Part shown: positions 3,186-60,549 of the stretch, piece by piece
Numbering within the stretch: the first letter of the stretch is position 1
How the letters are laid out: each line of letters opens with the position of its first letter
Source of the DNA: Eukaryota sp. GEM-RC1
Taxonomy: Eukaryota
NCBI GenBank assembly: GCA_040285855.1
Contig: JAUFOQ010000004.1
Location: forward strand, 2,542,001 to 2,606,000
Direction: 5' to 3'
Length of the DNA stretch: 64,000 nt
Translations under genes and position numbers: made by a program
Notes under the pieces: generated by a model
What the model was told of the DNA's origin: nothing
What the model saw: only the letters and a program-made list of their open reading frames with translations
The model's database searches: none

Positions 3186-3305
3186 TACTGGTTCTATCTA
3201 TGATTAATACATGTAGACATTTGCTAATAGGACGACAGCAGAGGTGATTTGATTCTTAGTCATACATGTAGTCTCTATTTTCCAATCTTCTTTTATCCAA
3301 TCCTC

Positions 3306-6223
3306 ATGTCAAATCCTTGCATTGACGATGGTCTTCCTGAACACGAGACAGTTACTGTCATGTCTGCTAAACAAATTAAGCAGTTTGTTCGCCCTCAATT
3401 TGAGGCTTCTCCCGACGATTACTATCCAACAGAAATCATGAAAACCCGTGGTTTCACTCGATCTCAATGTCCTAAATGCAATCACTTCTACTGGCGTCAC
3501 TCTGACTCAATTACTTGCTGTGGAGATTCCAACTGTCTTGGTGAGTACCAGTTCATCGGAACTGGTGTAGGAAAAAGGCACCCGTGGTGTTAAAATCTCT
3601 TACAAGGAAGCTTGGGATGGCTATGAACGCATCTTTTCCTCCAACACAGTTCCCTCAACTGCCATCGACCGCTATCCCGTGGTTGCACGTTGGAGAAATG
3701 ACATTGACTTTGTTGCTGCCGGCATCTTTTGCTTCCAACCTTACTGTGTCACTGGTGAACTTGAACCCCCGCTAACCCCCCTCATCTGCCCCCAGTTTTG
3801 TCTCCGATTCAATGATCTTGATTCAATTGGTCTTTCCGGTCGCCATCACTCAGGATTCGTGATGATTGGCAATCAAGTCTTCAACTCTAAAGAGAAGTAC
3901 GTCTACTTCCAAAGAGGAAGTTGTTGACTATCACTTACGTTGGTTAACAGAAGAGCTCGAGATCTCTCTTGATGACATTACTTTGATTGAAGACGTTTGG
4001 TCAGGTGGTGGAAACCTCGGCCCTTGTGTTGAGATCTTTGTCAAGGGACTAGAGGTTGGTAACATGGTCTTCATGGAGTATAGATATGCTCAGGACGGTT
4101 CCTTGCACAAGCTAGACGTCCAAGTAGTTGACGTTGGAATTGGTTTAGAGAGGATTCCCTGGTTGATCAATGGTACCCTCACCTCCTACCTCGATGTCTA
4201 CCCAGATACTCTCTCTCTGTTATCTTCCATTGTAGGAGTCCCTCTTGGTAATGAGACGTGGGAGAAGTTTGCTAGGTATTCGTGTTTGTTGAATGTTGAC
4301 GAGTGTGATGACGTGGCAGAAGCTTTTAATGACATCAGTAAACAGTTGCAAATGGATTCAAAGTCCTTAGTTACTGAAATCGCTCCTCTCCGAGACTTGT
4401 TCATCATTTGTGACCACACAAGAACCATTCTAATGGCTATCACCGATGGCTGTCTTCCTTCCAGTGTTGGAGGGGGTTTTAACCTGAGAAACTTGCTTCG
4501 AAGAGTGTTTTCTATAATGATCAAAAATGATTGGATGGAGAAAGTTGGATTAGAAGGACTGTTTAAGTTGTTTGATAGTCATCGTCTGGAATTGGCAGGT
4601 ATATATGGTGAGTTTGCACCCTACTCGTCGTTCAACTCAATCATTGAGATTGAATTTGACCGTTGGAAGAGTTCTGATGAAGAAGCAAAGAAGAAGCTCA
4701 AAACTGTGCTCAAAAAGAACCCTATTTTAGAGCTCAATGATTGGATTAAGTTGGTCACGTCATTTGGACTGTCACCTGACAAGATTGCTGAGATTTCTGG
4801 CCAAACTGTCCCTTCTAATTTATACTATGAAATTGCTGAACGTCAAGAGAAAGTGGCAAGGAAAGAAATGCTTCAATTGTACGAAGTTGGAAGGTTTAAC
4901 GCTACTGGTGAGCTCTTTTATGACGTTGAGAGTCAGAATGAGTGGTCTGCCACTGTATTGGGAATCTTGGAGAATCCTGTTGAAAATAACAGAAAAAACG
5001 TCATCGTCTTAGATCAAACTGCCGTTTATCCCACAAGTGGAGGTCAAGATCACGACAATGCCATTTTGATGTTGGAAAGTGGAGCTCAAGTTAACGTGAT
5101 TGATGCAATCAGAGTAGGAAAGGTCGTTTTACACATGACAGACACTGATTTGACTGATGACGTCATTGGAACAGAAGTCGTTGGAATTCTTGACCGTGAT
5201 CGTCGTAATCAACTCAGACAACATCACACTGCCACTCACATCATCCACGCTGCTTCCGTTGAAGTCTTGGGACCACACGTGTGGCAAAACGGTGCTAAAA
5301 AGACTGCAGAGATTGCTCATTTAGATATCACTCATTACAGATCTCTTACTCGAGAAGAAGAAACAACTATTGAGGAAAGAGCCAATGAGATTGTCAATCA
5401 GTGCATTAACATCTCAATCAGTGACGTCAGCAAGAAAGAAGCTGAAGCTGAGCACGGATTCTCTCTTTATCAGGGGGGTGTTGTTCCAGGAAATACTTTA
5501 CGTGTTGTTGATATTAATGGTGTTGACCAAGAAGCCTGTTGTGGTACGCATTGTACTAACACTGGACAAGTTGGCTTTGTTAGGTTAATTAGATCAAACC
5601 GAATCTCTGATGGAATTGTCAGACTTTACTTCGTTGCTGGTAAGAAAGCGAGAGAGTTTACTATTGATCAGGGAAATAGAGAAGCTGAGCTTTGTAGAGT
5701 TGTTTCTATGCAACCAGAGGATTTGATTGGCGCTGTGTCTAAATATTTTGAAGGATTTAAAAAATTCGACAAATTTTCAGATGGTTTTGTTCGATTGTGT
5801 CTTGATCACCTCACGGTTCCAACACTTGAACTTTCTTCTGTTTTCGTTAGGTTCGATCCCCCTAATACTTCAATGTATTCAATGATTGTCCCTCCTTATT
5901 GTGAAAAACTCAAGCAATTGAATCGCAATATCTTGTTCGTTGGCACTAGTTATATCTATGGTTTACTCGGAGATCCTAGTGGAATTGACCTCAGTCAAGT
6001 TGAAGGATTGGTTCTTAACCAGTTTAAGGATGTAGCAGATTTTAACAAGAAGAAAGCAATTAATAGTAGAACTAAGATAGTTTGGAGTGTGAAAGATGGT
6101 AAAAAGAGAGTTAAGAAAAGTGCAGACAATGTGTTGGAAATCTCAATTCCTCGGTTGAGAAATAGTGCAGCGGTATTGGATTATTTCATTGATCAGGGAT
6201 TTAGTGATTCATTGCTTGAATAG
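3306..6223 (+). CDS. alaS: Alanyl-tRNA synthetase, archaeal-type; frameshifts near 3575 and 3910
   Basis: N-terminal CxxC..FYW..CGD..C..YQFIG, YPVVARWR, CLRFNDLDSIGLSGRH, WSGGGNLGP, DVGIGLER, and editing motifs HHTATH and CCGTH. Confidence 0.95.
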
Positions 6224-10264: not shown

Positions 10265-10662
10265 TCTTGACTCGACTTGACTCGGCTCATTTTTTAAAAA
10301 TAACTACAAGACTGATTTTTGGTCACGTCATCTTGTTCCTGGGGTTTGAAAAGGCACTGTCACAACAGTCTGTTGTTTGTTCTGAGAAAACGGTGGCTGT
10401 ACAGTTCAGTAGCACAAAAGAATCATACATGGCCATCGAGAATGTAGGAATCGTCAGCAAGACGAAGAATGGTAAATGTTTCCCAATAAAACAGTCTGAT
10501 GATATCATAAAAGAGGATCATCTTGCCTGACAAAGTTGTGATCATGGTGTATCAAGTGGTGAGTTATGGTTTTGTCAGATCCACCTAGACGGAAGAGAAT
10601 GAAGTGATTGGAAAGAAACAAGAAGCTTGGACTCTTTGATCTTGAATCTAGTCTCTGATTAT

Positions 10663-11809
10663 ATGAACACAATCACCCACAGTCTCTCAAATCAGCATAA
10701 GTGCATTGCTCTTGTTCTTAGATCCTTTCAAAAGTTCCTTTCATCGTCTGCAGGTACGTTGGATATTGAAATCGCCAATGATTTTGTGAAGTTCTTCTCG
10801 CAATACGCATGTGGCTTCCATGATGCCTTTGAAGAGGAGTTTATGTACAACCACGCTCTTCAACTTAAGGATGTTTTAGATTGTGTGTTGGTCATCAAAA
10901 ATGAGCACATAAGACTACAAGGTTTGTTTCCACTTGTTCTCTTATCATAGATCTCTGCAAGGAAATGGAGAAAGCTCTTTCCGGTCCATTGTCAAGTTTC
11001 AAGAAGATCGCAACTCAATACTTCAGTTGCCAACTATTCCATGTCTATGTTGAAGATACTCAGCTCTTTCCTAAGCTCTCCATGTACATTGGGGAGTTTG
11101 ATTTGGAGAAGTCCAATTTGGACTTCGAACTCCAAGCTTCCATTAGGGATAATATACACCTCGAAGACCTTGGTTATTCATTGATAGCCAAGTTTCTTCC
11201 TGAAGACGTTGACTATCACTTTTCTTGGGAATCATTCACAAATAGTATAGCCAGTTTTGATCCTGTGTTTGCTCACTTGAAGAACGACCATCAACTTATT
11301 CTCAATGTGATTTCTTCCTTTGAGAAGAAGTTTGAAACAGATTCTTGTTCGGAATCTCGAAAAGTTCATAGTGCTGTCTTTATCTCTTTCCTGTCACGCT
11401 ACTTTCTAGACGTTCATTCAAAGAAAGAATCTCATGTTCTTTTCCCATTGCTAAACAGCTTGGATTTCCCTCTGATTTTGGACCCTTACCCCTTTTGATT
11501 GGAGATCTTGAATATATTAGAGATTTGATTGCTGATTGTCATGATTGCGATGATGATTTTGATTGCATTTTTGATCTCATTTCTGATGTTAGAATCCTCT
11601 TAAAGAGTAAGTCAGGTGTTTTATATAGACTTATGAACTTCCACCTTGCTGAACATGGTTTTGCTGACTCTCAAAAGGTTTTAGCAGAATTTGAACTTCT
11701 TGAAGATAATTGTCGTTCTCTCTTTGATGAGCTTGATGACGTGTTTGTTTTTTCTCAGGATCAAAATGGTTATAGCGCAGGTCAATCTGAGTCTGCCAAT
11801 CAAAGTTAA
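10663..11809 (+). CDS. Tandem hemerythrin-like (HHE) domain protein, copy 1; intron 10922-10950; frameshift near 11443
   Basis: Pattern H..HDAFEE..EH..HVYVE..LFP. The T run at the frameshift is one T shorter than in copy 2. Confidence 0.75.
10922..10950 (+). other. 29-nt spliceosomal intron
   Basis: GTTTGT...CTTATCATAG. Removal restores LQDLCKEMEK; the intron is conserved in the paralog. Confidence 0.9.
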
Positions 11810-12330
11810 TAGTTAATCACTTAGAATAACAGTGGTACATCTACATTTTAGTCTATCAACCAATATTAAGATTTGTTTATAAAGTCAAAGTATTTCAAGT
11901 ATCAAATAGCTACTTATTATGCTATTGATATCAAAAGTTCATCTAGAAGTGGCTTTTTGAAGAGGAAAACAGACAGATCACAAATAGACAGTTACAATGT
12001 GGTTGAAAGAAAGCAAACTGTTGGCCACATTTGTATATTATCATGCAGATAGCCTTTGTTCATAGAGAAAACATAGGCAACATTCATTTGAATCTTTTCC
12101 AGTTATCATGCAATTGTGGATGAAGTTCTATGGAATCACCATAAATCAGCTAAATAAGAATGTTTTTCAAGAAATGACATCTGCGCAATGGTGAAGTGAT
12201 AGCGCATCATTGCAATTAGAGACAAACAAATGCTAATGAGGTGATGACGTGATGAAAGAGTCTGATCCGCGACTTTTTTATACAAACACACTCTCCCTGA
12301 TTGAATTCCTTCCCATTTTGGCTAGCCAAG

Positions 12331-13490
12331 ATGTCCCTTGCGTATCATCTCTCAAATCAACATAAGTGCATTGCCCTTGTCCTCAGTTCCTTCCAGAAGT
12401 TTGTGTCATCTTCAGTAGATTCATTGGACACCACTACCGCCCAAGAGTTTGTCACCTTCTTCTCACAATACGCTTGTGGCTTCCATGATGCATTTGAAGA
12501 AGAGTTTATCTACAAGAATGCCCTCCAACTTGAGGATATTATAGACTGTGTGTTGGTCATCGAAAAGGAACACATAAGACTACAAGGTTTGTCCCCGTTT
12601 GTTCTCTTATCATAGATCTCTGTAAGGAAATGGAGAAAGCTCTTTCCGGTCCATTGTCAACTTTCAAGAAGATCGCAACTCAATACTTCAGTTGTCAGTT
12701 ATTCCATGACTATGTTGAAGATACTCAGCTCTTTCCTAAGCTCTCCATGTACATTGGGGAGTTTGATTTGGAGAAGTCAAATGCAGATTTAGAATGCCGA
12801 AACTTGGAAATTGATCATCTTGAAAACCTCGGATATTCATTGATCGCCAAGTTTCTTCCTGACAACGTTGACTACTTCTTCTCCTGGGAATCCTTCACCA
12901 ATAGTTGTACTGCTAGCTTTGATCCTGTGTTTGCTCACTTGAAGAACGACCATCAACTTATTCTCAATGTGATTTCTTCCTTCGAGAAGAAGTTTGTAGC
13001 AGATACTTGTCCGGAATCTCGAAAAGTTCATAGTGCTGTCTTTATCTCTTTCCTGTCACGCTACTTTCTAGACGTTCATTCAAAGAAAGAATCTGATGTT
13101 CTTTTTCCCATTGCTAAACAGCTTGGATTTCCCTCTGATTTTGGACCCTTACCTGTTTTGATTGGAGATCTTGAATATATTAGAGATTTGATTACTGATT
13201 GTCAAGATTCAGATCGATTAATTGATGATGCTGATTGCGTTTTTGATCTCATTTCTGATGTTAGAATCCTCCTAAAGAGTAAGTCAGGTGTTTTATATAG
13301 ACTTATGAATTTCCACCTTGCTGAACATGGTTTTGCTGACTCTCAAAAGGTTTTAGCTGAATTTGAACTACTTGAAGATAATTGCCGTTCTCTGTTTGAT
13401 GAGCTTGATGACGTGTTTGTTTTTTCTCAGGATCAAAATGGATATAATGTTCGACAATCTGAGTGCATCCAGCGAGGTATTATTCTCTAG
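12331..13490 (+). CDS. Tandem hemerythrin-like (HHE) domain protein, copy 2; intron 12587-12615
   Basis: Paralog of copy 1 with an intact frame after splicing. Confidence 0.78.
12587..12615 (+). other. 29-nt spliceosomal intron
   Basis: GTTTGT...CTTATCATAG at the same position as in the paralog. Confidence 0.9.
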
Positions 13491-15998: not shown

Positions 15999-17159
15999 AA
16001 ATTGTTACACTTTTTGACTTTTGAACAAAAAAAACACTGTGTTTATTGCACTGTAGTAGTTTTAAAAAATTTCTAATATTTTTAAATGGATTATGTTGAT
16101 TGTAAATATTGTACATTTTTCTGTCTTTAAGTGCATCTTAACTAATTTTGAATTTTTTCGTGTTCTCTGTCTAATTAAAATATTAAAATATTCTAAAAGT
16201 CGGAAGTAATGGAGTGTAGAATCTTGAACTTTTCTTTGTGTGTAACTGACTTTAGCACATTTAACCCCATCTCCAAAACTTTACATACAGTTAAAAGTAG
16301 ATTTCAAAATTGGATCCAAGACAGGTACGAGTGTAACTCTGATAACTAATACAATGTATAAATTGATAAAACCAATACTAAAATGAGCAGAAATAAACAA
16401 ATGACTTCAACCTCGAACAACGATGCAAAAAAAATCAATCCTCAACTCGTTTTAAAGATGAACAACCCTCTTAAGAGCGATTGTAGGAGCTCTAGATTTC
16501 AAAAGATGAGTGGCTTTTTCAGGAGTAGCAAATGTTTAAAATAAAAAACTTACTATGGTTTTTCATTGTCATATGAAGAAATGGTGTTGAGTTCTGAACC
16601 AATATTTTCCAAACAATTAGATAATTCCTGAGAAATTTTTGGAACATTCGCAGCCTACATCCTAGAAAACGAAAAGCGTCTTCAACATAATTGATAAATG
16701 GAATCTGAACTCCATTAATATATAATTCTTGTGTAGATCTACCAATTAGTAAACATTTGTCTGGGTTCAGAGATAAACCTAATGTATCATAAATATCAGC
16801 CTTCCACAGCGACCTTTTTTAACTAATCAAGGGGACCAATATTGAAGATATCATCAAATGACTATGACCTTCAAGTGATTTATTTCACTTGCAAGTGCAT
16901 TCATTCGTGGTCGACTTTGTCTTTGCTCTTCACAATTTGGAACCAATTGGCTCTGGTGGTTTTATGCGCAGAGCTACTGTGTTACTATAGAATCAATCCA
17001 GGTTCACACTTTTCTGTGGATCCTCACTATGTTGGTCCGTCTTTGCCTACAGTTTTGTGTCATTGATTAGATCTGATCTTGTTTTCTACCTAACAATGTA
17101 ACGATCAGTGTCTACAAGGTTTCAACAAAAGTCTTTCCACACTTTTCTTCTTACTAAAC

Positions 17160-17829
17160 ATGCAGCTTGTTGACCTCTCTCATGTCATCAGAAATGGTCT
17201 GCCCGTATATGTATGTACACTTGCTTATCGTCTCATTTCATCCTGGAACTGAACCTATTTCAGTTGAGCAGGCTAACAGTATTCCTGTTCATGGATACGA
17301 AGAAGTCAAGTTGACCATCACTTCCCATGTTGGTACTCACATCGATCTCCCTTCTCACATGAAAGTTGGTGCTGAAAACATCTCCACAGCTCCTGTTTCT
17401 AAGTATTACGGCCCCGCTATCAAGGTTGATGTACGTCATGTATCAGGTCTCATCAATATTGAAGATTTGAAGCCCTTTGAAGAAACCATCTCTAAGTCTG
17501 ACTTTTTGATTCTTCAAACCGGTCATGATCAGTACTTTGGTTCTGACCAGTACTTTGAAGGATTTCCAGTATTATCTCCTGATGCTGCGTCTTATATCAT
17601 TAAGGTCAACCCTGACATTAAGGGGGTTGGAATGGACTGCATTTCTCCTGATCCATGTGATACTACTACGTTTGATATTCACCATATCCTATTCAATCAT
17701 AACATGGTCATTATTGAAAATCTGAAGGATCTCGATGCAATTCCTTCAAATGTCTTTACTTTTGCAGGGTTTCCAATGCACATTGAAAACGGAGATGGAT
17801 CTCCCATCCGAGCTGTAGCTATTGTTTAA
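17160..17829 (+). CDS. Cyclase family / kynurenine formamidase (KynB)-like metal hydrolase; intron 17211-17241
   Basis: MQLVDLSH..GLPVY|PGTEP, HVGTHIDLPSH, IENL and GDGSPIRAVA. Confidence 0.9.
17211..17241 (+). other. 31-nt intron with non-canonical GT-AT ends (or a base-call error)
   Basis: GTATGT...CTCATTTCAT. Exact removal restores the conserved PVYPG. Confidence 0.75.
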
Positions 17830-23599: not shown

Positions 23600-24489
23600 A
23601 TAGATATCACAATGAGAGCAATGAAACCCTAGACACCGGAAATTCCTGGTCAACACTACTACAGTTCTTATACAACTTCATGATAATTGATTAAAAAACT
23701 TGGGCACCGAACGGAACAAAGCAATAATCAAACGGTTATACCAAATTGATAAGTTAAATCTCGTATTCGGAGACTTACACATAGATCCAAAATCAGTTAA
23801 AAACTTAGAAGCAATGTCACCAATACTACTAAAAAAGAAATATTAAATGAAACAAATACAAATTTTTAATATAGATATTTTGATTGAGTTTAGCAACATC
23901 TTTGGAATACAAATCAATATATTACGTTTTTCAGCTGTTTCTAGATGATTGAAACCTTGTGAATTGAAGCCATTAACATAAGTTTGACCACATGGATAAA
24001 CTGTTGTAGCATCAAGGATAATTTGACTAGAATCAACAAAAGGACCATGTAAGTCACCTCGACGAGAATTACTAATTAAATCAAGACCCCACTTACTAAA
24101 TAAGGGTTAAACTTTGGTATGAAATCCATGAGCTTTAAACATTTCTAATGTAACATCTCTTACATCACTATGAAGAACAGAACGAAACTGAATAAATTTG
24201 GGGCAATTAATTACATGTCTAAAAGTTGCATTGCGAGGATGACTAGATACAAATTCAGATTTGGCGAGCAATTCCGCAGAAAACAAACCTAAACGTAAGC
24301 GCATCTTTATAATTTCCAAGTCTCATCAGACAAATGCAAACCAAAAGGTCGTGGTTGTTGAGTGATCAAACAAGTGGAATTCTTAATATCATTTAAGAAA
24401 ACAGCAAAAACGGGATTATTTAGTAACACTAAAACGATTTGCGAAATCGAGGTTTTCAAATGGATAAATTTGAAACTTAACCCACACAC
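23600..24489 (-). mobile_element. 5'-truncated CRE-like non-LTR retrotransposon
   Basis: FGLHLSDE..MRLRLGL..FRHVINC..HGFHTKV, RRGDL and PD-(D/E)xK-like remnants. Confidence 0.8.
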
Positions 24490-24509
24490 AACGGGAGAGA
24501 CAATAGAGA

Positions 24510-25325
24510 TTTAGAAAACCTTAAATGTTCTCGTTTGCCAAGAAAATTTTGTTTTAATCTCAAGGATCATGAATGGCTTATAAACATGAGACTTAGGTTA
24601 AGTTTATGGCCTTCAGGTCTTTTGAAGCATTCTCCATGTCTTTGTGGTCGTTCAAAGGCTTCAAAGTTTCATCATTCAGTTAACTGTCATCAATTTATTC
24701 ATTTTCGATCAATTATTCACAACAGTATCCGGGATACATGTTTGGATATGTTTAAGGCTAATGGTTTTCATGGAAAAATTGAACCTTTACTTGCTAATCT
24801 TTCTGATCAGCCAAAAGTTGATAGAAGTCGTGGTGATTTGATTGGTCCTTGGTTATCTTGTCAGGAAATTATCATGGATTTCACGACTGTTGATCCTTGT
24901 AATTCAAGGTCAATTTCCAAAAATTTTGATGATTTTTCTGCTCTTGAAGTGGCTGAAAAAGGAACAATACAAATTACTGTCACTTAATTAACCAATTGAA
25001 TGTTGACAGGTACAATGTACAATTCTTTTGTGTTTCAACCTTTTGCGATGTCGATATACGGTAATATTGGACCAGCTGCACAAGGTTTTTTAACTTCTCT
25101 TGGTAAATTGTGTACTGAGTTGGTAAAGTTTTCAATGAAACTTTTTGGTTGAGTAGGTTAACGTTTGCGTTGTTTCGTTCAATGCACAGATATTTTAATT
25201 CAATTTTAGGTAAGTGGTTCGGTGATGGACAGAAGGATCATAGTTTAGATACTTTAGTTAGTGTCTGTTAGTTATTAACTTCTGCAAATGCATTATTTCA
25301 CTGACTGATCATAAACCCCGTTTTA
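24510..25325 (+). mobile_element. 5'-truncated CRE-like non-LTR retrotransposon
   Basis: CLC..H..C zinc knuckle and RGDL..DFTTVD..E.AEK restriction-like endonuclease motifs. Confidence 0.82.
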
Positions 25326-25449
25326 TAATGTCCGATTATAGTCACTGTAGATTATGTGGAGTGCTGTAAACAACAAGAAATTCAAGTGAATTGAAGATTT
25401 CCGCTGAGGAATTGTTTATAAAGTCAGATGTGTTGATGAAACAGTTGTT

Positions 25450-25592
25450 GAATTAAACAAAAATTAGAGTACCCCACCCTACGCCAAGTAGCCATAAGGG
25501 AGCCGGACTGCCACTGTCACACCGCAGTGCAATGGTGGAGGACAATCCAGTTGTGACTATTCTTGAGCAGTCACAATGTACTAAGGTATGTT
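25450..25592 (-). ncRNA. U1: U1 spliceosomal snRNA (variant 5' end ACAUAC)
   Basis: In order: 5' AACAUACCU; helix H AGUAC/GUACU; SL I 8-bp stem with loop GCUCAAGAAU (U1-70K-like); SL II loop AUUGCACUGC (U1A site); SL III; Sm site AAUUUUUG. The ends are approximate. Confidence 0.9.
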
Positions 25593-25984
25593 AAAGAGAA
25601 AGTGAAAATTTGTAAATTTAAATAGATTTCACTAGTGCTCCCACTAGTGGGGGATCCTTCAAATGACTAAATTTAACTTTTCTCTTCACAATCCTTTGTG
25701 GAGGTGATGAATACAGCAATGATGTTTTACATACTGCTGGTTTGATGCTAAAACGCAAACTATCATCCATTACCTCATCCGTCTTGCACGGGAATTTTTT
25801 GTTAACTCAACAACTGTACTTGTATGTTTCTTAATGAAACTTCTTTATGAATGGTCTTCTGTGGTGTCCTTATAGTTCGGCGATGTTCCATTTGGAAACT
25901 TGTCACACAATCTCGTACATCTTGGTCTCTATGTGACTTTGACTCTCAAGACAAGAATATTTATTCAGAATATATACATCAAAA

Positions 25985-33359: not shown

Positions 33360-35370
33360 CTAGAATTTGATATCATTAAAACAACACCCGTCGCTATCAA
33401 ACCTTACAACAGCTTTGTCCTCATAAAACGAACTCACTGATAATAAAGCTTTGGAGATGATTAGGGGAACTGTTTTAAAAACAGTAAAAACGATCCGATT
33501 CAACCATAACATATGATCAAAACGTTTGTTCATCCTATTTTTTACGATTTTTCCGAAATCGTTTAAAAAATGCAATGCACTTTTCCTAAACGTCCGTAAA
33601 TTGAAACGGCAAAAGGGCATAATTCGTACTCAACATGTTTAACATGTTTTAAAGCCATCAATGGTTTTCTGTACTTATCCTGTTTGGCCTGTTCAGAAAT
33701 GTATAAAGGAGAAGTTTCAGACGAAGCGTTCTTTAAAGATGTCTTTTTACAAACATCCACTGACACTACATCAACAACAAACAATTTGTCTGAAGAAGAA
33801 GGGACAACAACATCTGCTCTCCGTTTACCAAAAAATTGGTTCTGTTTTTCGACATTACAATTATTACTTGGTTCTTAAGATCTTAGAAGTGGTTCAACAA
33901 ATAACTCAATTTTGTAAGACTTACACATAGCATGTATTTGATCTCTTACAGCATCATGCATACACGTTCGATAAGTTATGTAGCGATTACAACTTAACAG
34001 ATGAGAAAACGTTAATTGTTCTCCACAACTACATTGAAGATCATTTGGCAAATTAAATGGCCATAAATAACAACGAAGTCTCATTGTAGTGGTCCATTGA
34101 TGATCATTTAATAACAAACCGTATACTTGTGGAATTTGATTGATTAATGCCACAGCAGAACTCTCCTTTAAATCAATCAAAAAATTAGCGAAAGCTGGAT
34201 TTTTTCCTTAGCCGAGCTAAGACGGACTGTAAAATCTACACTTTCAAAATATTTTAATAAATGATTTTGTAGATTTTTAAAGCAAACTTTAAAGACAAAA
34301 TGTTTCGACATGGAATTTCTTTGATATCAACAGGAAAGCAAGTTGACCATAGCTCAGGAGAAAGATTTCCTAATTCACCACGGAGATGATTAAGATAAAA
34401 GCTGCTAGTACTTTCAAGAAGAGAAGTTCTTGATGGATATCGATTACAAAACTCGATTACAAAATTCTTTCCACCACCAATCAAAGCTGCTTTAGTCCAC
34501 CATTTAGAAGATGTAAATCCCAAACCTCCAAGACATGGACTGGAAAATGTGTGGTTATTTAAAATATTGGGGTTGACTTGAAGAAGAAAAGAAAGAAAGT
34601 CTGTGCGAATTTTGTTAAAAGCTCTACAGAAATCATACGATAACTCAGGAGCAGGGGACCTTAAAAGATGAGTAATTTTGCCAGAATAACAAATTTTGAG
34701 CATGAAGAATTTTAAATGTTTTTCAATTTCAAGAACTTTAATCTTATCCAACTCTTGTTGAATCGAATTCAAATAATCATCAAGGTTTTTGACAATATCT
34801 TCCTTTTTACCAAAAAAAACAACCAAGAAATCTGAAACTTGAAGCAGAATAACTAATGAAAGGGACTTCAATTGAACGAATTGTTAATAACTTTGGTTCT
34901 TTTCCTATAACGGAACATTTTTGAATATTTAAATTTAAACCAATCTCTTCATACAAAGTGGCAGCTTCTGCAGAAATTGCTTGTATAGTCTCAAAAGGTG
35001 TAATAAAAGAAATGTCATCCATATAAGCCACAATTTCCAAATCCTTATACTTGGATTTAAGATAGTTGAGAATGGGGTGAATAGCAAGGCAGAAGAAAAA
35101 AGGTCCAAGAGGATCGCCTTGTTTAACACCGGTTAGTGAAGAAAGATTAGCCGAGTTGTAGACCAAATCAGACGAATTACCATAAAAAATATGAAAAAAA
35201 GATTCCAATTCTGGAAAATGTTCTTGTAATTGTGGCAAAATAACAGCACGTTTAACAGAGTTGAATGCGTTTTTAAAGTCAAGATTAAAAACATAATTGT
35301 CAATTTTGGTGTTCAAAAAAAGATCAGAAGTCAAAGCTGCATCTGAAGCACCATCAATTGTTTTAATTCC
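33360..35370 (-). mobile_element. CRE/SLACS-like non-LTR retrotransposon (RT + CCHC + restriction-like endonuclease), 5'-truncated and frameshifted
   Basis: LDFKNAFNSV, GVKQGDPLGPFFF, AYMDD, FLGC, CSC..HLLSC, VDV..E.AK.DKY and PFAVSIYG. Confidence 0.9.
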
Positions 35371-35515
35371 ACTTTGATCTTGTGGGTAAACTTAATTGTA
35401 AAGTATCTTCAACACTAACAAGAAAAGAGATCAACAAAAGAAAAAGTTAATTAAAAGCCTGAAAAAATTCTATGATACACTATAAATAAATAACTACAAC
35501 AATCAATTAACTAAA

Positions 35516-37946
35516 TCAATAAAACACAACTGAATCATCTTGAACAGCCAATATCTCATCATCCTTTAATCGATCTAATACAATTTCAAACTCTTCACTA
35601 GAAAAAGGCTTAACCGCAGCTTGATTAACAGAGCCCAATAACTCCTCAAGTTTCATCAAAGATCTACGTTTACGAGCCCTAATAACCGAGAAGCTATTAT
35701 ACATGAGCTCTGTGAACTCCTCATAACGACTGTCTGTCACGTCATTAGAGATTGAATTGGGCTCAATCAATGGAGTGTCCACGTCACTATCCAAATACAC
35801 TTCTTCATCATCTCCAGTTCTACTTCTCTTTGGTTCTCCGTTATTAGACTGAGTTCTAGTTCTAGCTTCAGCAATGACTCGAGAGACAGTTTCTGAGTAG
35901 AAGTTAGTAAATGGAGAGTTCAAAGCAGCAGCAGCTACTTCTATTGCCACTTCTACATCCTCCACCTCTACAACTGAGCTCCACCTAATCTTAGCATGAG
36001 CACATGACAGTCGAAACAACGTTTCTAGAGCTCTCGGAGTGATTGGGACCGAGAACTGAATTCCCTGCTCTTTGGACAACCCTTCATACTTCTCCCTTAA
36101 TTGACAGTAGTAGTCAACGGCAGCTTGGCTGGCTTCAGGGGTAAGCCTGGGACTGAACCTAGTCTTAATGTAGTAGAGGTATTTCTTTAAGAAATCTTGT
36201 TTAAGGGATTCGGTGCCGTAGGAATCTTTAATGAAGTAGTCATCGGATTCAACGTCAACATTTTGACCTTCAATCAAATTCTGTTCGAGGGCATTCAAAT
36301 CGACAGACTCATCATCAACTTTGTCAGATATAGAAACATTTAACAACTTGGCAACTGCACAATCATCTTGATCTCTATTCTGAGCTGATTCCTGATGAAT
36401 CCTAAGTACATGAGAGGCGATCTTCGAGTCAGATTCAGTATCACCAGCACCTCTAATAACAAACACCAAATCAAAACGTGATAGCAAAGAATCCGGAATC
36501 CCAATGTTCTCAGACAAACTCTTTTCAGAATCAAACAAGTTATGTAAAGGATTTGCTGCAGCCAGGATACTACTCCTAGCGTTAAGAGTGGCTTGGATTC
36601 CAGCTTTGGCAATAGAAACTGTCTGCTGTTCCATGGCTTCATGTAGAACACCTCTGTCTTGATCATCAAGCTTGTCAAACTCATCAATCACACAGAAACC
36701 TCTATCAGCCAACACTAGAGCACCAGCTTCAAGTCTCTTCTCATTGACAACTCCTAAAGAGGAGAGGTGGGAGGAGGCAAAAGTATCTGGAACAACTGCA
36801 GCTGTCAAACCAGCGCTAGATGAACCTCTACCAGAAGCTGAAACTCCAATAGTAACTGTTCGGAGAGTGTATCGAAGCATTTGACTCTTGGCAGTGGCGG
36901 GATCTCCAACTAAGAGCACGTTGATATCCCCTCTGATTCTACCGTGATTGCCAATCACGTGTTCGACACCACCAGCGAGCATTAGAAGGATTCCTTTCTT
37001 GACTGCGTTGTGACCAAAAATAGAAGGTGCGATTGATGACGATAAGAGCTCAAATAGATTGGGCTTAAAGGAAAGTTCCTTAATCATTGCAAAATCAGCG
37101 ACAGAATAGGCAGGTCTTCTAGAATCCTCGTTCAAGACTTGAACTGACACTCCAATCAAGACAGTAGCAAAAGAGGAAGAAGAGGGAGCGAAGGAAGAGC
37201 CAGATAGTAACCTAAAAACCCCCGCTACTAAGAGTCTACTGCCAACAGGTGCTGAGTCAGCAAGGTCAGAAAGAAGCAAGCACTCAACAGAACGAGGAAG
37301 TTGACCTGCAGGGGAGTTGTTCAGGAGCTTCTTGAATGGTGACCAGTTGAGCGTCAGTAAACTCAGAGAGGCCAAACTCTTGGGTAAGAGGATTGTTCTC
37401 GTGGTCAGTGGTGGCTATCCTACCTCCAAAGGAAGAGAGAGGACCAGCAACGAGAGGGTGGGGGTAGACTCTGGTGTGCCATTCATTCTTGGTTGGGCAG
37501 AAATGTTTCATTTGACGAGGGAGGGGGAGTACGGGGAAGCTCTGGCGATGACACCTTCGAGACAGACGAGTTTGTGGATGTGGAAGGCACGAAGGTTACG
37601 TGGGGTGGCGTGATTAGGACCAAAAGAGCCTTGGAATCCAATAGAGAAATGAGGAGCTACTTTTCCTTGAGGTTGACAACCCTGCAAGAATAGCAGGGAA
37701 ATTGAGTTGAATGGTGGATGAAAGTGCATCTTCAAAAGGAGGAATGAACTGAAGAGGAGAATTGAGGAGACCGTTGTACAGTTCGGGATCAAACTGTTCA
37801 ACGTCTTTAAGATCAACAGTGAGACGAGTTTTGCCTGACTTAAGGAGGTTTTCAATTTTCTTGTGATACTTTCCACCTAGGATATCGGGTGACAGGAACT
37901 GTACATAAGAACCACGTATAAGATCTGGCGAAACATTGTGACTCAT
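35516..37946 (-). CDS. MCM3: DNA replication licensing factor MCM3; several frameshifts in 37310-37690
   Basis: [49 protein letters not shown] and TPRALETL. Confidence 0.92.
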
Positions 37947-37976
37947 TTATAAGAAGAAATTTGTTTGAAGGAAAAG

Positions 37977-37985
37977 TTTCCCGCC
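37977..37985 (+). promoter_or_regulatory. E2F-type site TTTCCCGCC in the 47-bp MCM3/CFAP20 divergent spacer
   Basis: Matches TTTSSCGC and lies ~30 bp upstream of the MCM3 ATG. Confidence 0.5.
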
Positions 37986-37993
37986 CATTGCAC

Positions 37994-38605
37994 ATGTTCA
38001 GAAACAGCTATCAGTCAGGTTTTCTATCAATTCTATATTCCATTGGATCAAAACCGCTCCAAATATGGAACAAAAGTGTGCGGAATGGACATATCAAAAG
38101 AATCACAGATCCTGATATTCAGTCGCTCGCTCTTGAAATTGCTGGTACCAACGTCAGCACCACTTATATAACGTGTCCGGCGGATCCTAAACAAACACTC
38201 GGAATCAAACTCCCCTTTATCGTCTTCATCTTGAAGAATCTTAAACGTTACTTTACCTTTGAAGTTGAGATTCTTGATGATAAGAATGTCCGTCGCCGTT
38301 TCCGTGCAAGTAACTATCAAGCAAACTGCCGTGTAAAGCCTTTCATCTGCTCCATGCCTATGCGTCTTGAACCTGGTTGGAATCAAATCCAGTTCAATCT
38401 CAGTGACTTTACTCGCCGTGCTTTTGGTACCAATTACATTGAAACCCTTCGAGTCCAAATTCATGCAAATTGTCGTCTCCGTCGTATCTATTTCACTGAC
38501 AGGCTATACTCTGAGGAAGAACTACCAGCTGAATTCAAGTTGTTCTTGCCTTTCCAGAAAACGCAACAAGAACCAACTGAGCAACCTCAGTTCATGGATA
38601 ATTAA
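37994..38605 (+). CDS. CFAP20: Cilia- and flagella-associated protein 20 (BUG22)
   Basis: [25 protein letters not shown]...[15 protein letters not shown], a near-invariant family sequence. Confidence 0.97.
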
Positions 38606-38839
38606 TTAATGGATGTACAATATATAATACTTAAGCTTTTAAATTTTTGAATAAAAATGAGTTACATGAATTGCCCACAGTGATACATCATAAACTCTTG
38701 ATTTTGTGTATTGTGTTGGTCCCTTGCTCCTTAATTGCATAATGACATGCAGTAGCCGGCTTTAAACGAAGCGATAAGGGTGGGATCAACCCAACGGAAG
38801 TTGAATTCAATTCAGTCATTACTTTCCGTTCATTGAGTC

Positions 38840-39607
38840 ATGATTCCAATTACTCTATTGTTGCTGTTTGCGTTTGCCGCATTTGTTTCTGCTGATGTTA
38901 ATTGCTGTGTTGGAACACTCTGCGTTAATGCTCAAGAAGATGTGCTTGATCTTCAGCTTATGAAGTATTTATGTGGTTCCGATGTTGAGAATTGTAGCCC
39001 TGTATGCAAACCACTCGAAATTCCCTCCACTTTTACCGGTCCCTGTACCACTGAAGGTGATCAGGAAGGATTACCTTTCTGTGAATTTGACCTTGAAGCT
39101 GAACTTGGAAGTGAACTCGGATCTCTTGGCTGTGTGTCCCGTAAGACTATGCTTGTATGTTCCTCATATTGATTCAGAGTAACTGAAGGCGCGAGGTAAA
39201 TCTTGGGTTGACAAAAAGATCCCTTACTCTCAGAAGAAGACTTATCAAGGATATAGGACTGATTGTTCAGGTTTGTCCTATGTCATTGCTCATTTCAGGA
39301 TTTGTTAGTATGTGTTGGGGAGAAAAGAAACCTGGTTACACTACCCGAACCATCAACCAAGTGAGTCACACGATCTCCAAAGGGTCATTACAGGCAGGTG
39401 ACGCTCTTTTAAATGCTGGATCTCATGTTGTTCTATTTGTTAAATGGGCAAACAGTGCAAAAACCAAGTATGTCTCCTATGAAGAGTCTGGTTCAAAGGG
39501 TTCTGTTGCACGGTATGTCACTCATCTAATGTATTCACCTCAGTGTTACTCCTTATCCTTACTGGAGTGGAAGCTATCATCCCATCCGTTATAACAAAGC
39601 ATGTTAG
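38840..39607 (+). CDS. Secreted NlpC/P60-like cysteine hydrolase, copy 1; introns 39155-39188, 39271-39298, 39513-39543
   Basis: Signal peptide and Cys-rich N-domain. Spliced product reads IPYSQ..GYRTDCSGFVSMCW..GDALL..HVVLF..YEE..PYPYW. Confidence 0.85.
39155..39188 (+). other. 34-nt intron
   Basis: GTATGT...GTAACTGAAG. Removal gives collinearity with the paralog, which has no intron here. Confidence 0.85.
39271..39298 (+). other. 28-nt intron
   Basis: GTTTGT...CTCATTTCAG. Removal restores DCSGFVS. Confidence 0.9.
39513..39543 (+). other. 31-nt intron
   Basis: GTATGT...TTCACCTCAG. Removal restores VARVTPYPYW. Confidence 0.88.
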
Positions 39608-39787
39608 TGTTTAAGGTTTAGGTTATTTGTTAATAAATTATTTCTTATACTTGTACTTAGAGCAATTGATTTGGTGACTTATCGTCAAGAATACTCAAAA
39701 TTGAATTGCCAATTAAGGGTTCGGTCATTGGACAACCGTTTAATTACCAATCAATTGACCAATTAATATTTATTTATTAGAGAGAGA

Positions 39788-40830
39788 AATGTTTATTCGG
39801 CACCCAATAAGGTAACCTTCCTACAAACTATGAAATTGTAAAAACAAACAAATAATACTAAGATTAATCCAAACGACTTCATCACCACCCGGTAAAAGAT
39901 TACGTTTATCAACATTAACCTTCACACCAAACTTGTACAATTTCTCAATTAATCTAGAGAAATAGAAAGGCATATTCCGATATATGAAAAACACTATACG
40001 GTTTTTCCATTCAGCCATTCTAAACTTACGCTTCTTTTCTTTACACAATTCTTCGAAATCCTTGAAAAATTGATCACCAGCAGGACTAATAGATCCAAAA
40101 AGAGAAACAGCAAAAGGTTGAAACACAAATTTAGAATATGAGTTTCTATTTAATTCTTCTACTTGAGAGTCATACTTGGAGTGTTTGAGCTTTTCAGCTG
40201 CTGTTAATGGATTAAAAGTAGAATCTAATATCCTACTAACACAAGATTTGTTACATACATCTACTGTAGTAAAATCCATTAATGATTGACCCGATTTAAG
40301 CCACGGAGTATGTAGATCCCCTCTTTTTGATCAGTAAATTCATTTTCTGAAAGATGATTCAAAACTGGTTCAACTTTAGAGTGAAAACCATGTGCTTTAA
40401 ACATGGAATAACAAGAATCACGTACACCATCATGAATTACTGCACGTAGATGAATAAAATAACGACAATTAATTAAATGACGAAAAACACCATTAGCTCC
40501 ACAAGAGCACGTTGAATAGTTTAATAAATTTGCAGGCCAAATAGCCAAACGAAGACGCATATTGATCATCCAAGCTTCATCAGATAGATGTAATCCATAC
40601 ACCTTTGGAATTTGAGAAATAAATCCAGAAGGTCCACTATTACAAAGATCGATCAAAAAGCAGCGAACTCGGGACTATTAGTTTTAGCCAAGCTAATACG
40701 ATTATTAAAGTCCAAGAGTTCAAACTCCTTGTCAATTTATTTTGCAGCTTACATACAGCAGACGGTAGAGATGAAATATTTTTAAAGGAGTCTCCTTCAA
40801 ATGAGCAGGGAACAAAGATTCCCACATTTC
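39788..40830 (-). mobile_element. 5'-truncated CRE-like retrotransposon with 3' UTR
   Basis: CCHC and endonuclease motifs. Near-identical segments occur at 45865-46152 and ~62900-63105. Confidence 0.85.
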
Positions 40831-41335: not shown

Positions 41336-41424
41336 CTCTTCATAAAAATGAATATTTTACTATTAAATTTGATGAAAACATCTTGACTGATATACCAAAG
41401 AATTTATTCACAAAGATTACCCAT

Positions 41425-42112
41425 CTAACAAATATTGTTATAACGAATAGGACTGAAGGAACCAGACCAATAAGGACTAGAGTTAGTGAGAAGAACTGAA
41501 ACAAACTAGGGAGTGACGCGAGCAACAGAACCCTTGGACGAAGACTCCTCGTAAGCCAGATACTGGGTATGAGCACTATTGGCCCATTTGACGAACAATA
41601 CAACGTGTCCAGATCCTAACAAAGCATCACCTTCACGTAAGTCATTCTTAGAGATACTGCGAGATACTGAGGAGATGGTGCGAGTGGTTAAACCAGGTTT
41701 AGATAATCCCCAAGCCATGCTAACGAATCCTGAGGTAAGAAAGAAGGACCAAAATACCAGAGCAATCAGTTCTATATCCTTCAAAAGTCTTGGACTGAGA
41801 GTATGGAATATGAAGGTCAACCCAGCGTTTTCCATGAGCCAATACTGTCTGACGAGAGACACAGCCAAGAGATTCACAGAGAGGAATTCCTTCTTGATCT
41901 CCATTAGCGGAGCAAGGACCGTTAAATGGTGATGGAACACTTAGACTATGGCAGGACAGGTCACAGTTTTCAACATCATCGCCACACAAATACTTAAGAG
42001 ACTGCTCCTGAAGTAGATCTGTTTGAGAGTTTACACATAATGATCCAACGCAGCAGGTTACATCGGCGGACACCAAAACTAGGACAAGAGCTAAGAAGAG
42101 ATAGAGTTGCAT
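41425..42112 (-). CDS. Secreted NlpC/P60-like cysteine hydrolase, copy 2; introns 41730-41757 and 41477-41506
   Basis: Spliced product reads IPYSQ..GYRTDCSGFVSMAW..GDALL..GHVVLF..YEE..PYPYWSG..PIRYNNIC. Confidence 0.85.
41477..41506 (-). other. 30-nt intron
   Basis: GTTTGT...CTAACTCTAG. Removal restores TPYPYW. Confidence 0.88.
41730..41757 (-). other. 28-nt intron
   Basis: GTATTT...CTTACCTCAG at the same position as paralog intron 39271-39298. Confidence 0.88.
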
Positions 42113-43653
42113 TGCAATTGAAAATGATGGAACATTATTGAAGGAATTAGTCATTTAACATGACGTTTCCTAATACCATCGTGTAGTGTTGTTTACAAAC
42201 AAGTTCAAGTGCTGCTGCAGAGTTAAATGCTCTTGATTGAGATATTGTCAACAGAGGAAATGATAGGCTTATGACACTTCTGAATTAGCGCACAACATAA
42301 TGATTAAATCACGTCATGACCAATGTCCATATCAGTATTTAAGTGTTGGTGTTAAATTGATAATGTTGTAGTGTATGTGTTCATAATCATGGTTGATTTA
42401 ACTACTTTTAACTTTATTAAAGTGAAGACAAAGCTTCAACAAAGTTCCATTCTAAGGAATCTTGCTTTGATGGTATTCAGTTTTAGACTATTTATTTCAT
42501 TATATTTGCCATAAAAAATAGTAGAAAAACAAATTTAACTACATTGTTCCAAGATTTGTGTTTGCTGTCTTTAAAAGTATGGTGACTTCTGTTTCTAGCG
42601 CTTTATTATCTCTTGGCAGACATTATGAGGATAAGGTTGGTGAGAATATCTAGATAGGAAATCTGGACTTTGAGGATATTGATTATTAGATGCATGTACA
42701 CTGTAGTGTTGTTGTCAATAAATACGAATGTTGAAAAAATGTACCAAACTAGTAGATTAGATTTTCCAAGCAATGTTTATAACATCAGCATCAGAATATG
42801 AACTAAGTGTTACACATTAGTGTCAATTAGCCTAATTGTCGTCCACAACAAGCTTCTACATAATTCGTTTAGCTCTCAGTTTTTCTTCTGATGAATCTCT
42901 CCTTCAACATCTACACTTAGCTCTGTCGTCATTTCCCTTTGTTTATCCATCGTCTTCATTTCTGTATACACTTCTTCTCGCTGTCTCGTTTCACCCACTT
43001 CTTCCTTGTACTCTCTCTTCAATTCCACAAGTGATGACGTGTCTGGTGATGACGTTTCCGATCCCTTCGGGTTTCTCTCTTTTCTCCCCTCTTTCAGCTA
43101 TTCTTACGAATTCTTCTTCGATATTTCTTGTTAGATGGAGTTGTGTCGATCCTTCTTGAGATTCTTAAAAAAAAACAATCAAGACTGAACCATGTACAGT
43201 TTTCTATTTCAAACCATTAATCCTTCTCAATAATTCGAAAAATTGCAATTTTTCTGCTCTATTGTTTTCAATGATACAGTTTTAGTGATGGAAGAAATTT
43301 CCGTCACCTTCATTTTCTTCCTCAATTTTGTAGATATTAAATATTGTTAAAGAGTTTTAAATAACCTGAATTTTAAGTCTAAACATTAAAGTTCACGCTA
43401 CATACATGATTATAACTTCATCATAGTTCTTTTAAAGTCAGTTCACATTAAATTTGTTAGTTATTCTAATAATTAGAACTTGATCACGTTTATCCATTGT
43501 TTAATCATTTCATTTTATGCTCACTTTTTGATACAATTAAATTGTTTGACTCTAATCACTTATTGATATCAAACAGAGGAAGAACTGACAGACTCGAAGA
43601 CTTGCAGTAAGTACAGAAGAACAACTCTCAAGGACAATCTCTAATGAAAGAGC

Positions 43654-48639: not shown

Positions 48640-50594
48640 TTACAAAATATGATCCATTTCACTGTCAGTTTCACGTGCTAAATCTGATATCTGAGAGTTT
48701 GTTCTAGACAAATGCTTCTTCACTTTACTCCTACATTGCCTTAGATTAGTACTAAACCTTGCACATTTATCTCTTCTTCGTTCTCTCTCTAAATCAACCC
48801 CAATTGGAGGTGCTCCAGACAATGTGTTCTTCACAAGATCTCCATAAGTATTAATAATACTTAATATATATGTCAAACCTGAAACAACATGACATTCCAC
48901 ATTAGAATCTAACAAAACATTGACAGCTGGAATCAAAATGACTGCTAAATCAAGATTTACACTTGCTCGATTTGAAGATCCTAATTCCAGAGCATTAAAA
49001 ACGTCATAAACAACCGAAGGATCACTCTTACTGATTAGCTCTTTGATTGCCTGTGACTGATCCCTACTCCATCGACTGGAAACTGATTTTAGAGATGTCA
49101 GTCGCGACATCAAAACTGATTGCAGAGTGCCCGTTTGAGTCTTTACCAATTCTAAAAAAGTCCTCAGCAAGGGAATTGAGAGAAGAATCTAGATTATTAC
49201 TATTGTTGTTCACAAGGAACGCTGACGGATCCAATCCAATCGGCGTGTCTTTTGGTTGTGGTATCATTGACAACTCAAATGAGCTCTTTTGTGATTGATT
49301 TTGACTTTGATGTGATGGATCAAAGTTTTTAGGAGCTGATTTTGAGCGGTGACTGTCATCTCCTTTAGATGAGTCAATCACTTTAGAATCTAATTTTTCT
49401 GTAATACCTTCATTCTGACCTCTTTCCTCTTTCGGAACAGATCCTAACTCGGGACTTATGTCTTCCTTTGGATAACTTCCTTTTGTCTGACTACTGCTAA
49501 CAACTGATGAATTAGGCATTTGAACTACATTTACACTTCGCCTCTCATCATCGTTTCTCCTCGGGACCCGTACTTCAACTGAATTATAGTAGTTCTTCGG
49601 AGGTTTCCCAATCGGGGCAATCAATTTTAAATCAGCCACGTGTATAGAGGCCACTGATCCATTACCCACAGCTGCTACTAGACTTTTACTATCTTGAGGT
49701 TGCACTAAGAGATCCATAACTCTAGCAGAATGACTAGTACTCCCACCCCAGTTAGCTACAACTGAGTCAGCTGAAGAGAGAGAACCGTTGGAGGATTGGG
49801 AGAAGGTCCAGGATTTGAGTAGAGTCTGGGTGGTGGAGAAAAGAGCATCACCATTGGGAGAGAAAGCGACGTTAGTTACAGGGGTGGCTTCAGTGGGAGA
49901 TGAAGCAGACAAGCTGAAGGTATCAAGCTCCCATAGCTTTGTAGTTCTATCCTCACTACCTGGAAGCAAGGAGGAAGTCAGTGGGATGAAAGGAGAGAGA
50001 AGTAAAGACACCTCCATCGTCAGTGAGAGTGGAGAGGACTTTGCCGGCAGTGATGTCCCATATTTTAAGCTTACCGTCAGCTCCAGCACTTATCACCCAG
50101 CGTCCATGAGGAGAGATTTTAACAGAAGTAACAGCAGATGAGTGCCCACGATAAGTAAAGATGTCCCGTCTAGAACGAATATCCCAGATTTTGATGTTAG
50201 TATCACGACTTCCGGAGACCATGACGTGACCATAAGGATGGAAGTCTAGACAAGTGGTAGAAGTACGATGTCCAACAAAAGTTTTCGATATTGATTCATG
50301 GGCAAGGTCAAATAGTTTTATAGCACCAGAATCAGATCCAGCAGCAATAACTTGCTCTTCAGGATCAAAAGAGATAGATGTAACGGGTGCATTGTGTTTT
50401 AAAGACTAAAGTCAGAAGAACAATAAGAAAGAGCATACAAGAGTGAGGTCTGGTTTGCCAATGGTCCAGACATTGACAGCTTTGTCTTTTCCTCCAGATG
50501 CAAAAACTAGTCCGGATTTTCGTCCAACATTAAGACAGTTGGTATCGTCTGTATGTGCAACAAGTTCTTGCACTCTAGAAATGCGTTTGGACAT
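48640..50594 (-). CDS. KATNB1: Katanin p80 WD40 subunit; intron 50406-50438; frameshifts near 49960 and 49160
   Basis: QELVAH..GRKSG..ASGG.DK.VNVW.IGKP, WD repeats, and C-terminal con80 motif PPIGVDLERERRRDKC. Confidence 0.92.
50406..50438 (-). other. 33-nt intron (contains an in-frame stop)
   Basis: GTATGC...CTGACTTTAG. Removal restores KPDLTLSLKHNAPV. Confidence 0.88.
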
Positions 50595-57512: not shown

Positions 57513-57584
57513 TCTTCTGTAGTGTAATGGTTAGCACAGATGACTCTGAATCATCTAATCCCAGTTCGATTCTGGGCAGAAGAA
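57513..57584 (+). tRNA. tRNA-Gln (anticodon CUG)
   Basis: Full cloverleaf: acceptor TCTTCTG/CAGAAGA, D arm GTGT/GCAC, anticodon stem GATGA/TCATC with loop CTCTGAA, T arm CCCAG-TTCGATT-CTGGG. Confidence 0.93.
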
Positions 57585-60089: not shown

Positions 60090-60549
60090 TTATAATTTGG
60101 GAGTTCCAAAAGCATACAGTTTTGAAACATAAATTCCAGATCCACCAAAGTTTTCTGTCTAAAATAAGTAGGAAAATAAAACAAACAATTTCCAGTTTAA
60201 TAAAGCAAGCATCCATAGGATTCTCGAGATCAAACAAATGATCCCCAGCCCTGTGTTCTAGTTCACCTTCTGTAACGTTTTCCCAAGTAGATCCATCCAT
60301 TGACAGATAGAAGTTGACGATACGAGGATTTTGGTTGTTTTCTCCATGAAGATACACACCGACACGATGTATGACACTAGGATCGGCAAATTTCATGACG
60401 ACAAAGTGTGGAGGTTGACAAGAAACATGAGTGAACCAAACAAGAGATGCATCACGAAGAAGCAGATTCGAGCATCGACTTTCATGATGATATTGTGAAG
60501 AGAATTCGACTATCTCAGCACCAGATTCAGAGATAGCAAGATTACGCAT
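60090..60549 (-). CDS. Small discoidin/F5-8 type C (galactose-binding-like) domain protein; intron 60159-60186
   Basis: W....PPHFVV.....P....FYLSMDGSTW...ACFIKLEI|TENFGG..IYVSKLYAFG. Confidence 0.65.
60159..60186 (-). other. 28-nt intron
   Basis: GTTTGT...CTTATTTTAG. Removal gives a plausible domain C-terminus. Confidence 0.82.

Follow-up and report, generated by a model that had tools for sequence, protein, structure and literature searches.

The 5' splice-site recognition box of U1 snRNA, usually ACUUAC, is nearly invariant even where donors have moved to a uridine at intron position +4 (+4U). U1 has been described as unchanged in Giardia, Trichomonas, Thecamonas, Mamiellales and yeasts (10.1101/2022.06.08.495308). 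Trichomonas combines +4U donors with a canonical U1 (as cited in 10.1101/2022.06.08.495308), Giardia combines them with ACUUAC (PMC3510501), and ACUUACC is invariant in 227 of the 227 Saccharomycotina U1s detected (PMC10581693), which bears out the statement of an earlier, sequence-only reading of this DNA that budding yeast keeps the usual box. Roy and Bowser reported an AACAAAC U1 in five Entamoeba species, for which they argue coevolution, and ACGUAC in Mastigamoeba; Physarum polycephalum is stated in the same paper to hold an ACAUAC U1 alongside standard copies, with GUAUGU donors, and the missing U1 compensation in +4U lineages is called mysterious (10.1101/2022.06.08.495308). Parker et al. 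linked +4U to the loss of METTL16 or SNRNP27K, named an adenosine at U1 position 5 as a possible compensation and detected no METTL16 in the Excavata that they sampled (PMC10581693). A U1 matched to its donors is thus a known, rare kind.

In this study, a 64-kb stretch of DNA (the window) was analyzed, and we describe from it a U1 gene with the box ACAUAC, the changed base being U to A at position 25589. Our main reading, to which we assign a probability of about 0.68, is that this gene encodes what is likely the working U1 of the organism, that it is likely transcribed outward together with the U4 gene beside it, and that its RNA is predicted to form an A-U pair at donor +4. As far as we found, the metamonad case is new: the literature search brought up no metamonad with an altered U1, and supplements and subscription journals may hold one; in the accessible text of the genome paper on the lineage (10.1101/2023.05.03.539051) the term 'snRNA' is absent from the main text, and the accessible portions of PMC6679479, PMC2396436 and PMC12316389 hold nothing on U1 boxes.

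The window U1 and the Rfam U1 family (RF00003) have in common the 5' box, helix H, stem-loops (SL) I-III, the U1-70K and U1A loops and the Sm site; the window gene differs in ACAUAC, in CUU for CUG and in having no SL IV. Entamoeba and Mastigamoeba resemble it in that the box has been altered and now matches donors with a pyrimidine at +4; in Entamoeba, too, the changed position is an A, and a preceding A is able to pair with +7U. However, Entamoeba is described with two box changes and a full match to GUUUGU, whereas the window U1 has one change and donors split between GUAUG and GUUUG, and the lineages (Amoebozoa and Metamonada, respectively) are unrelated. Physarum shares the identical box and GUAUGU donors, but holds both U1 forms. 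Giardia, likewise a metamonad with +4U donors, has a U1 that ends at the Sm site without SL IV (also absent from Candida albicans U1; PMC3510501), and its ncRNA genes have a common 3' motif, as the U1 and the U4 candidate of the window do; it has retained ACUUAC but not the U1-70K loop, whereas the window U1 has ACAUAC and both protein loops. Saccharomycotina are like the window host in their +4U donors and differ from it in an invariant U1 box.

The host is a Skoliomonas-like metamonad, a free-living flagellate. Its MCM3 is 99, 62 and 59% identical to the nearest proteins (P0001-P0003), whose labels we take to be those of isolates of Skoliomonas, a metamonad genus. The genes of the window, including MCM3, CFAP20 and a katanin p80-like gene among others, are eukaryotic, and MCM3 and CFAP20 lie head-to-head with starts about 60 nt apart (37930-37995). 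The features of the window used in this analysis are listed in Table 1.

Table 1. Positions of the U1 gene, the likely U4 gene, their flanks and the introns in the window
Feature	Position	Strand	Basis or remark
U1 snRNA gene	25593-25458	-	Rfam U1 match and MFE cloverleaf; ends inferred
5' splice-site recognition box ACAUAC	25591-25586	-	Sequence; register 11 nt before helix H (Rfam alignment)
Helix H	25582-25578 with 25472-25468	-	Closes four-way junction
U1 SL I	25576-25551	-	U1-70K-type loop 25568-25559
U1 SL II	25550-25503	-	10-bp basal stem; U1A loop AUUGCAC at 25533-25524
U1 SL III	25502-25473	-	Fold
U1 Sm site	25465-25458	-	3' of helix H
U1 Sm site and 3' flank in common with U4 candidate	25441-25465	-	Inverted repeat I1
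Spacer, 97 nt, likely bidirectional promoter	25594-25690	.	Role inferred
Likely U4 snRNA gene	25691-25801	+	Rfam U4 weak match; Sm site; pairs with U6 of L010
U4 candidate Sm site	25793-25801	+	Sequence
U4 candidate Sm site and 3' flank in common with U1	25793-25817	+	Inverted repeat
Intron, GTTTGT, 29 nt, hemerythrin-like copy 1	10922-10950	+	Frame restored, stop removed; top donor-blind candidate
Intron, GTTTGT, 29 nt, hemerythrin-like copy 2	12587-12615	+	Position same as copy 1
Intron, GTATGT, 31 nt, cyclase gene	17211-17241	+	Length forced by homologue spacing; ends AT
Intron, GTATGT, 34 nt	39155-39188	+	Absent, colinear in paralogue 41420-42120
Intron, GTTTGT, 28 nt	39271-39298	+	Frame change; same position as paralogue's 41757-41730
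Intron, GTATGT, 31 nt	39513-39543	+	Absent, colinear in paralogue
Intron, GTATTT, 28 nt	41730-41757	-	Top donor-blind candidate
Intron, GTTTGT, 30 nt	41477-41506	-	In-frame stop removed; absent in paralogue
Intron, GTATGC, 33 nt, katanin p80-like gene	50406-50438	-	In-frame stop removed
Intron, GTATGT, 26 nt, WD40 gene	52873-52898	+	Deposited protein P0121 spliced here; top donor-blind candidate
Intron, GTTTGT, 28 nt, F5/8 type C domain gene	60159-60186	-	Frame change, by eye

The U1 gene measures about 135 nt when its 5' end is placed at 25593 or 25592 and the Sm site is taken as its other limit, both ends being presumed. The elements of a U1 cloverleaf that the sequence-only reading had named on the minus strand were all recovered in their places by sequence and fold. 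The Rfam U1 model was the top match in a 1.2-kb region (29.2 bits, E 3.1e-5, full model length) and, when the whole window was compared with 4227 families, the only non-tRNA match with E<0.1 (E 0.0017); the score lies far below the gathering threshold of RF00003 (69.5), and at gathering thresholds Rfam detected neither U1 nor the U4 candidate. The loop of SL I is identical to the Rfam consensus loop at 8 of 10 positions and the U1A loop at 7 of 7. The cloverleaf is the MFE fold (z = -2.76, a value matched by 1 of 200 shuffles), with a mean pair probability of 0.89; the first 11 bases are predicted to be single-stranded and the box to be unpaired with probabilities of 0.88-0.99. A composite U1 motif pattern that allows any base at the two variable box positions has a single occurrence in the window and none in 300 resampled windows. 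The tail 3' of the Sm site is unpaired in the fold, and no SL IV appeared there or in the Rfam alignment. The stems are all intact and the protein-binding motifs are all present in order, as is expected of a constrained gene, and we regard 25593-25458 as almost certainly a real, divergent U1 snRNA gene. The low Rfam score and the adjoining degraded retroelement-like DNA are what a silent pseudogene, or a chance look-alike among transposon remnants, would show; with the intact, ordered structure, the empty resampled windows and the flanks in common with U4 set against it, this explanation is barely credible.

In the Rfam alignment 25589 corresponds to U1 position 5, and the change there is exactly the compensation named by Parker et al., which supports the reading of a retuned U1. 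The adenosine (A5) is predicted to pair with donor +4U, replacing a U-U mismatch. Donor-pairing energies were computed for 10 of the 11 introns, the cyclase intron being left out; with 25589 reverted to U, one Watson-Crick pair was lost in all 10 donors computed, and A5 is predicted to add about 4.0 kcal/mol in the four GUAUG donors computed and about 0.9 kcal/mol in GUAUUU and each of the five GUUUG donors. The exon-facing bases of the window U1 are CUU, against the usual CUG. GUAUGU pairs with the box at six of six positions and GUUUGU at five of six, with a U-U mismatch at +3. The earlier claim that pairing is restored therefore stood for a Watson-Crick pair at +4, but not for the commonest donor as a whole (GUUUGU, 5/11), which is mismatched at +3. 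Only four of the 11 donors pair across all six box positions, so this U1 matches a fixed +4U and not the whole donor population.

This assembly contains many errors. Three frameshifts in MCM3 were confirmed against homologues, frameshifts are frequent in base runs (e.g. 35516-37950 on the minus strand and 3300-6223 on the plus strand), and 17 of the 22 frame breaks listed are unexplained by called introns. Deposited models (e.g. P0001) bridge such frameshifts with false introns, which would contaminate any donor logo based on the annotation. In an assembly with so many frameshifts, A at 25589 might be a base-calling or polishing error in an otherwise normal U1; the missing AG of the cyclase intron and a U for G in the kink-turn of the U4 candidate could be substitutions of this sort, and the metagenome scan described below yielded no relative of the window U1 to confirm the base. 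However, the confirmed errors are indels in base runs, and 25589 lies outside any run. With retroelement remnants excluded, same-frame stops flanked by at least 60 open codons on each side numbered 0 in 27,237 host coding bases, i.e. 0 stops over 1233 A/T stop-making opportunities, which bounds A/T substitutions at about 0.24% or less (95% bound). The change at 25589 is also the single one that complements the donors. An alternative 5' register of U1 with an inserted C was rejected, for it leaves no AC to pair with the intron GU. We accordingly judge the A very probably real and a sequencing error very improbable.

Introns were read from the DNA of the 64-kb window, by eye at frame breaks, a procedure that in-frame stop-free introns escape. 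Eleven introns of 26-34 nt at nine independent positions were called, and the tally given by the sequence-only reading (GTATGT in four, GTTTGT in five, GTATGC and GTATTT in one each), with T at +4 in all, was reproduced. Base counts (n = 11) were A in six and T in five at +3, T in 11 at +4, G in 10 at +5, T in 10 at +6, T in six at +7 and G in five at -1; given an intron-interior T frequency of 0.49, T at +4 in all nine independent positions has p = 0.0015. Among the 11 introns, three are absent from a colinear paralogue, two share a position in the paralogue pair, one is used by the deposited protein P0121, one is forced by homologues and four are supported by frame restoration or stop removal. 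When candidates were ranked blind to the donor, the called intron came first at four of five intron breaks, with the highest pyrimidine content among the spans that restore the frame; the fifth, whose two ORFs do not overlap, gave no candidate. At the frame break 54791-54815 the same test found a competing pyrimidine-rich span with +4A; this break is probably a C-run indel, with a +4A intron as the alternative. Thirty GTRAG sites on the coding strands were inspected by eye, and not one resembled the beginning of an intron. A program that called introns automatically from codon scores was set aside as too noisy.

The length of the cyclase intron, 31 nt, follows from homologue spacing in 57 of 62 cases. 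It has a GTATGT donor and its 3' end reads AT where AG is expected, which reflects either a substitution error of the assembly or an acceptor that is truly non-canonical. Shifting this intron along the sequence was rejected, as it gave neither a GT-AG nor an AT-AC reading. The deposited protein P0122 reads through the intron unspliced. The nearest matches of the cyclase gene (17155-17829, plus strand), after two sister proteins, are bacterial where named, and lateral transfer followed by a later intron gain is possible. For the gene with the katanin p80-like intron, a search of protein representatives gave only many-repeat WD40 proteins. Tandem hemerythrin-like genes (10650-13490, plus strand) have one intron in common.

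A candidate U4 gene, overlooked in the sequence-only reading, was found through the inverted repeat that flanks U1 and lies head-to-head with it, 97 nt away. The Rfam U4 model (RF00015) scored 14 bits (E 0.39 on 221 nt; gathering threshold 46). The U6 used as its partner is foreign, coming from the metagenome locus L010; with it both stems form, via the 5' end of the candidate and UGCUAA. The duplex of -24.7 kcal/mol was equalled by 42 of 3654 window tiles and the cofold by 23 of 600 controls, and the U4 of the control locus L009 was stronger (-29.2 vs -24.7 kcal/mol). The 5' stem-loop forms, with an imperfect kink-turn in which the second GA is UA and one base is extra. Over the 25 nt from each Sm site, U1 and the U4 candidate are identical at 22 of 25 positions, the next best in the window being 18 of 25, and the 30 nt upstream of the two genes align better than all but three of 5000 intergenic controls. 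The spacer has a similar AT-rich and pyrimidine element ahead of each gene and two 8-nt palindromes (25630-25637 and 25642-25649). The common 3' flank is a likely 3'-end signal; its equation with the 12-nt motif of Giardia was unsupported, at 9 of 12 matches, a level reached by 5.7% of window positions.

Each of these lines is modest, but jointly they point to a pair of snRNA genes transcribed outward from the 97-nt spacer, 25691-25801 being likely a U4 gene. The likely U4 neighbour and the common flanks argue for a working snRNA locus, and this pair of genes is the best evidence here for a maintained U1 gene. The U1-U4 pair with its common flanks also offers a search handle for other sub-threshold snRNAs of the lineage (U2, U5 and others).

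A metagenome scan that queried only the ACAUAC variant, and therefore gives no frequency, returned 16 loci, of which 10 were Rfam U1 matches (nine above gathering and one cut by a contig end); the other six had no RNA match in Rfam and were treated as chance. None of the 10 ACAUAC U1s resembles the window gene. Six of them (L001, L002, L003, L004, L007 and L008, with L001 and L007 the same sequence) are plant-type U1 genes with identical first 13 nt and a common upstream promoter motif, which we take to be the plant USE, and in five of the six a canonical U1 lies 600-1400 nt from the ACAUAC U1. They may represent a conserved plant variant for +4U donors, on which the literature search found no paper. 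The other four (L009, L010, L011 and L014) belong to a GC-rich (56-60%) eukaryote lineage and score 87-89 bits where complete. There a dense RNA-gene cluster (SRP, U4, U5, U6, U3-like, 5S, tRNA-Sec and many tRNAs) shows no U1 other than the ACAUAC form, and the U6 in L010 keeps ACAGAGA; a further independent ACAUAC case is possible in this lineage. ACAUAC thus recurs and can be a side copy, and since canonical U1s accompany five of the six plant-type genes, the box alone is no proof of a retuned spliceosome.

The same could hold for the window gene, which would then be an expressed variant in a genome that also encodes a canonical ACUUAC U1 at another place; it would aid recognition of +4U donors while the spliceosome in general stayed as it was. 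Both forms are reported from Physarum (10.1101/2022.06.08.495308), five of the six plant-type loci have a canonical neighbour, and the search for further U1 copies covered 64 kb. Against this, the Rfam covariance-model search detected one U1 in the window and no other, the gene has the U4 candidate as its partner and flanks in common with it, and none of the 11 donors has the +4A that would need a canonical copy. We therefore consider a side copy unlikely and infer that the window U1 is probably the organism's main U1. That ACAUAC is the host's only U1, so that its spliceosome would be retuned and halfway to the Entamoeba state (matched at +4, with donors divided between GUAUG and GUUUG at +3), is a reading towards which we lean slightly. 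If true, the host would, beside Giardia and Trichomonas with their ACUUAC and like +4U donors, serve as a natural test of two questions: why compensation by U1 is so very rare, and whether U1 leads or trails donor change.

The sequence-only reading proposed that a compensatory U-to-A change in U1 coevolved with +4U. Such a claim needs the window U1 to be the main copy, as Physarum and five plant-type loci hold canonical copies too. The complementarity it invoked is present, but +4U arises without U1 change in Giardia, Trichomonas and yeasts, which makes U1 more likely a follower than a driver. In the order of events that we propose, donors would have shifted first to +4U, probably via loss of m6A (METTL16) from the U6 ACAGA box, to which the shift has been linked in yeasts, and U1 would then have fixed the compensating change of U5 to A. 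The likely bidirectional promoter would express U1 and U4, and the U1 RNA would assemble with U1-70K, U1A and Sm proteins. A5 would matter more than in yeast, exon-side pairing being weak (-1G in 5/11) and +3 often U. The converse, a U1 change that preceded or accompanied the donor shift and pushed donors towards +4U, would fit a sample in which +4U is complete together with a matched U1, and coevolution of this kind has been argued for Entamoeba (10.1101/2022.06.08.495308). It is distinctly unlikely here, considering that +4U donors are described with a canonical U1 in Giardia, Trichomonas and 227 of 227 Saccharomycotina and that the +4U shift probably predates the host lineage. A compensated U1 in a third supergroup, beside uncompensated relatives, provides a contrast by which the order of events (U6/METTL16 first, U1 later) can be tested.

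Further observations were made in the window. Two paralogues (38835-39610 on the plus strand and 41420-42120 on the minus strand) have signal-peptide-like starts and a DCSG motif, presumably that of an NlpC/P60-like cell-wall hydrolase; Pfam left their exon pieces unnamed. Three intron positions occur in one paralogue only, which suggests recent intron gain or loss. Degraded reverse-transcriptase remnants are located at 24100-25150, 33560-35400 and 39820-40680, with a Pfam RVT_1 match at 34810-35391, and a tRNA-Gln(CUG) gene lies at 57513-57584 on the plus strand.
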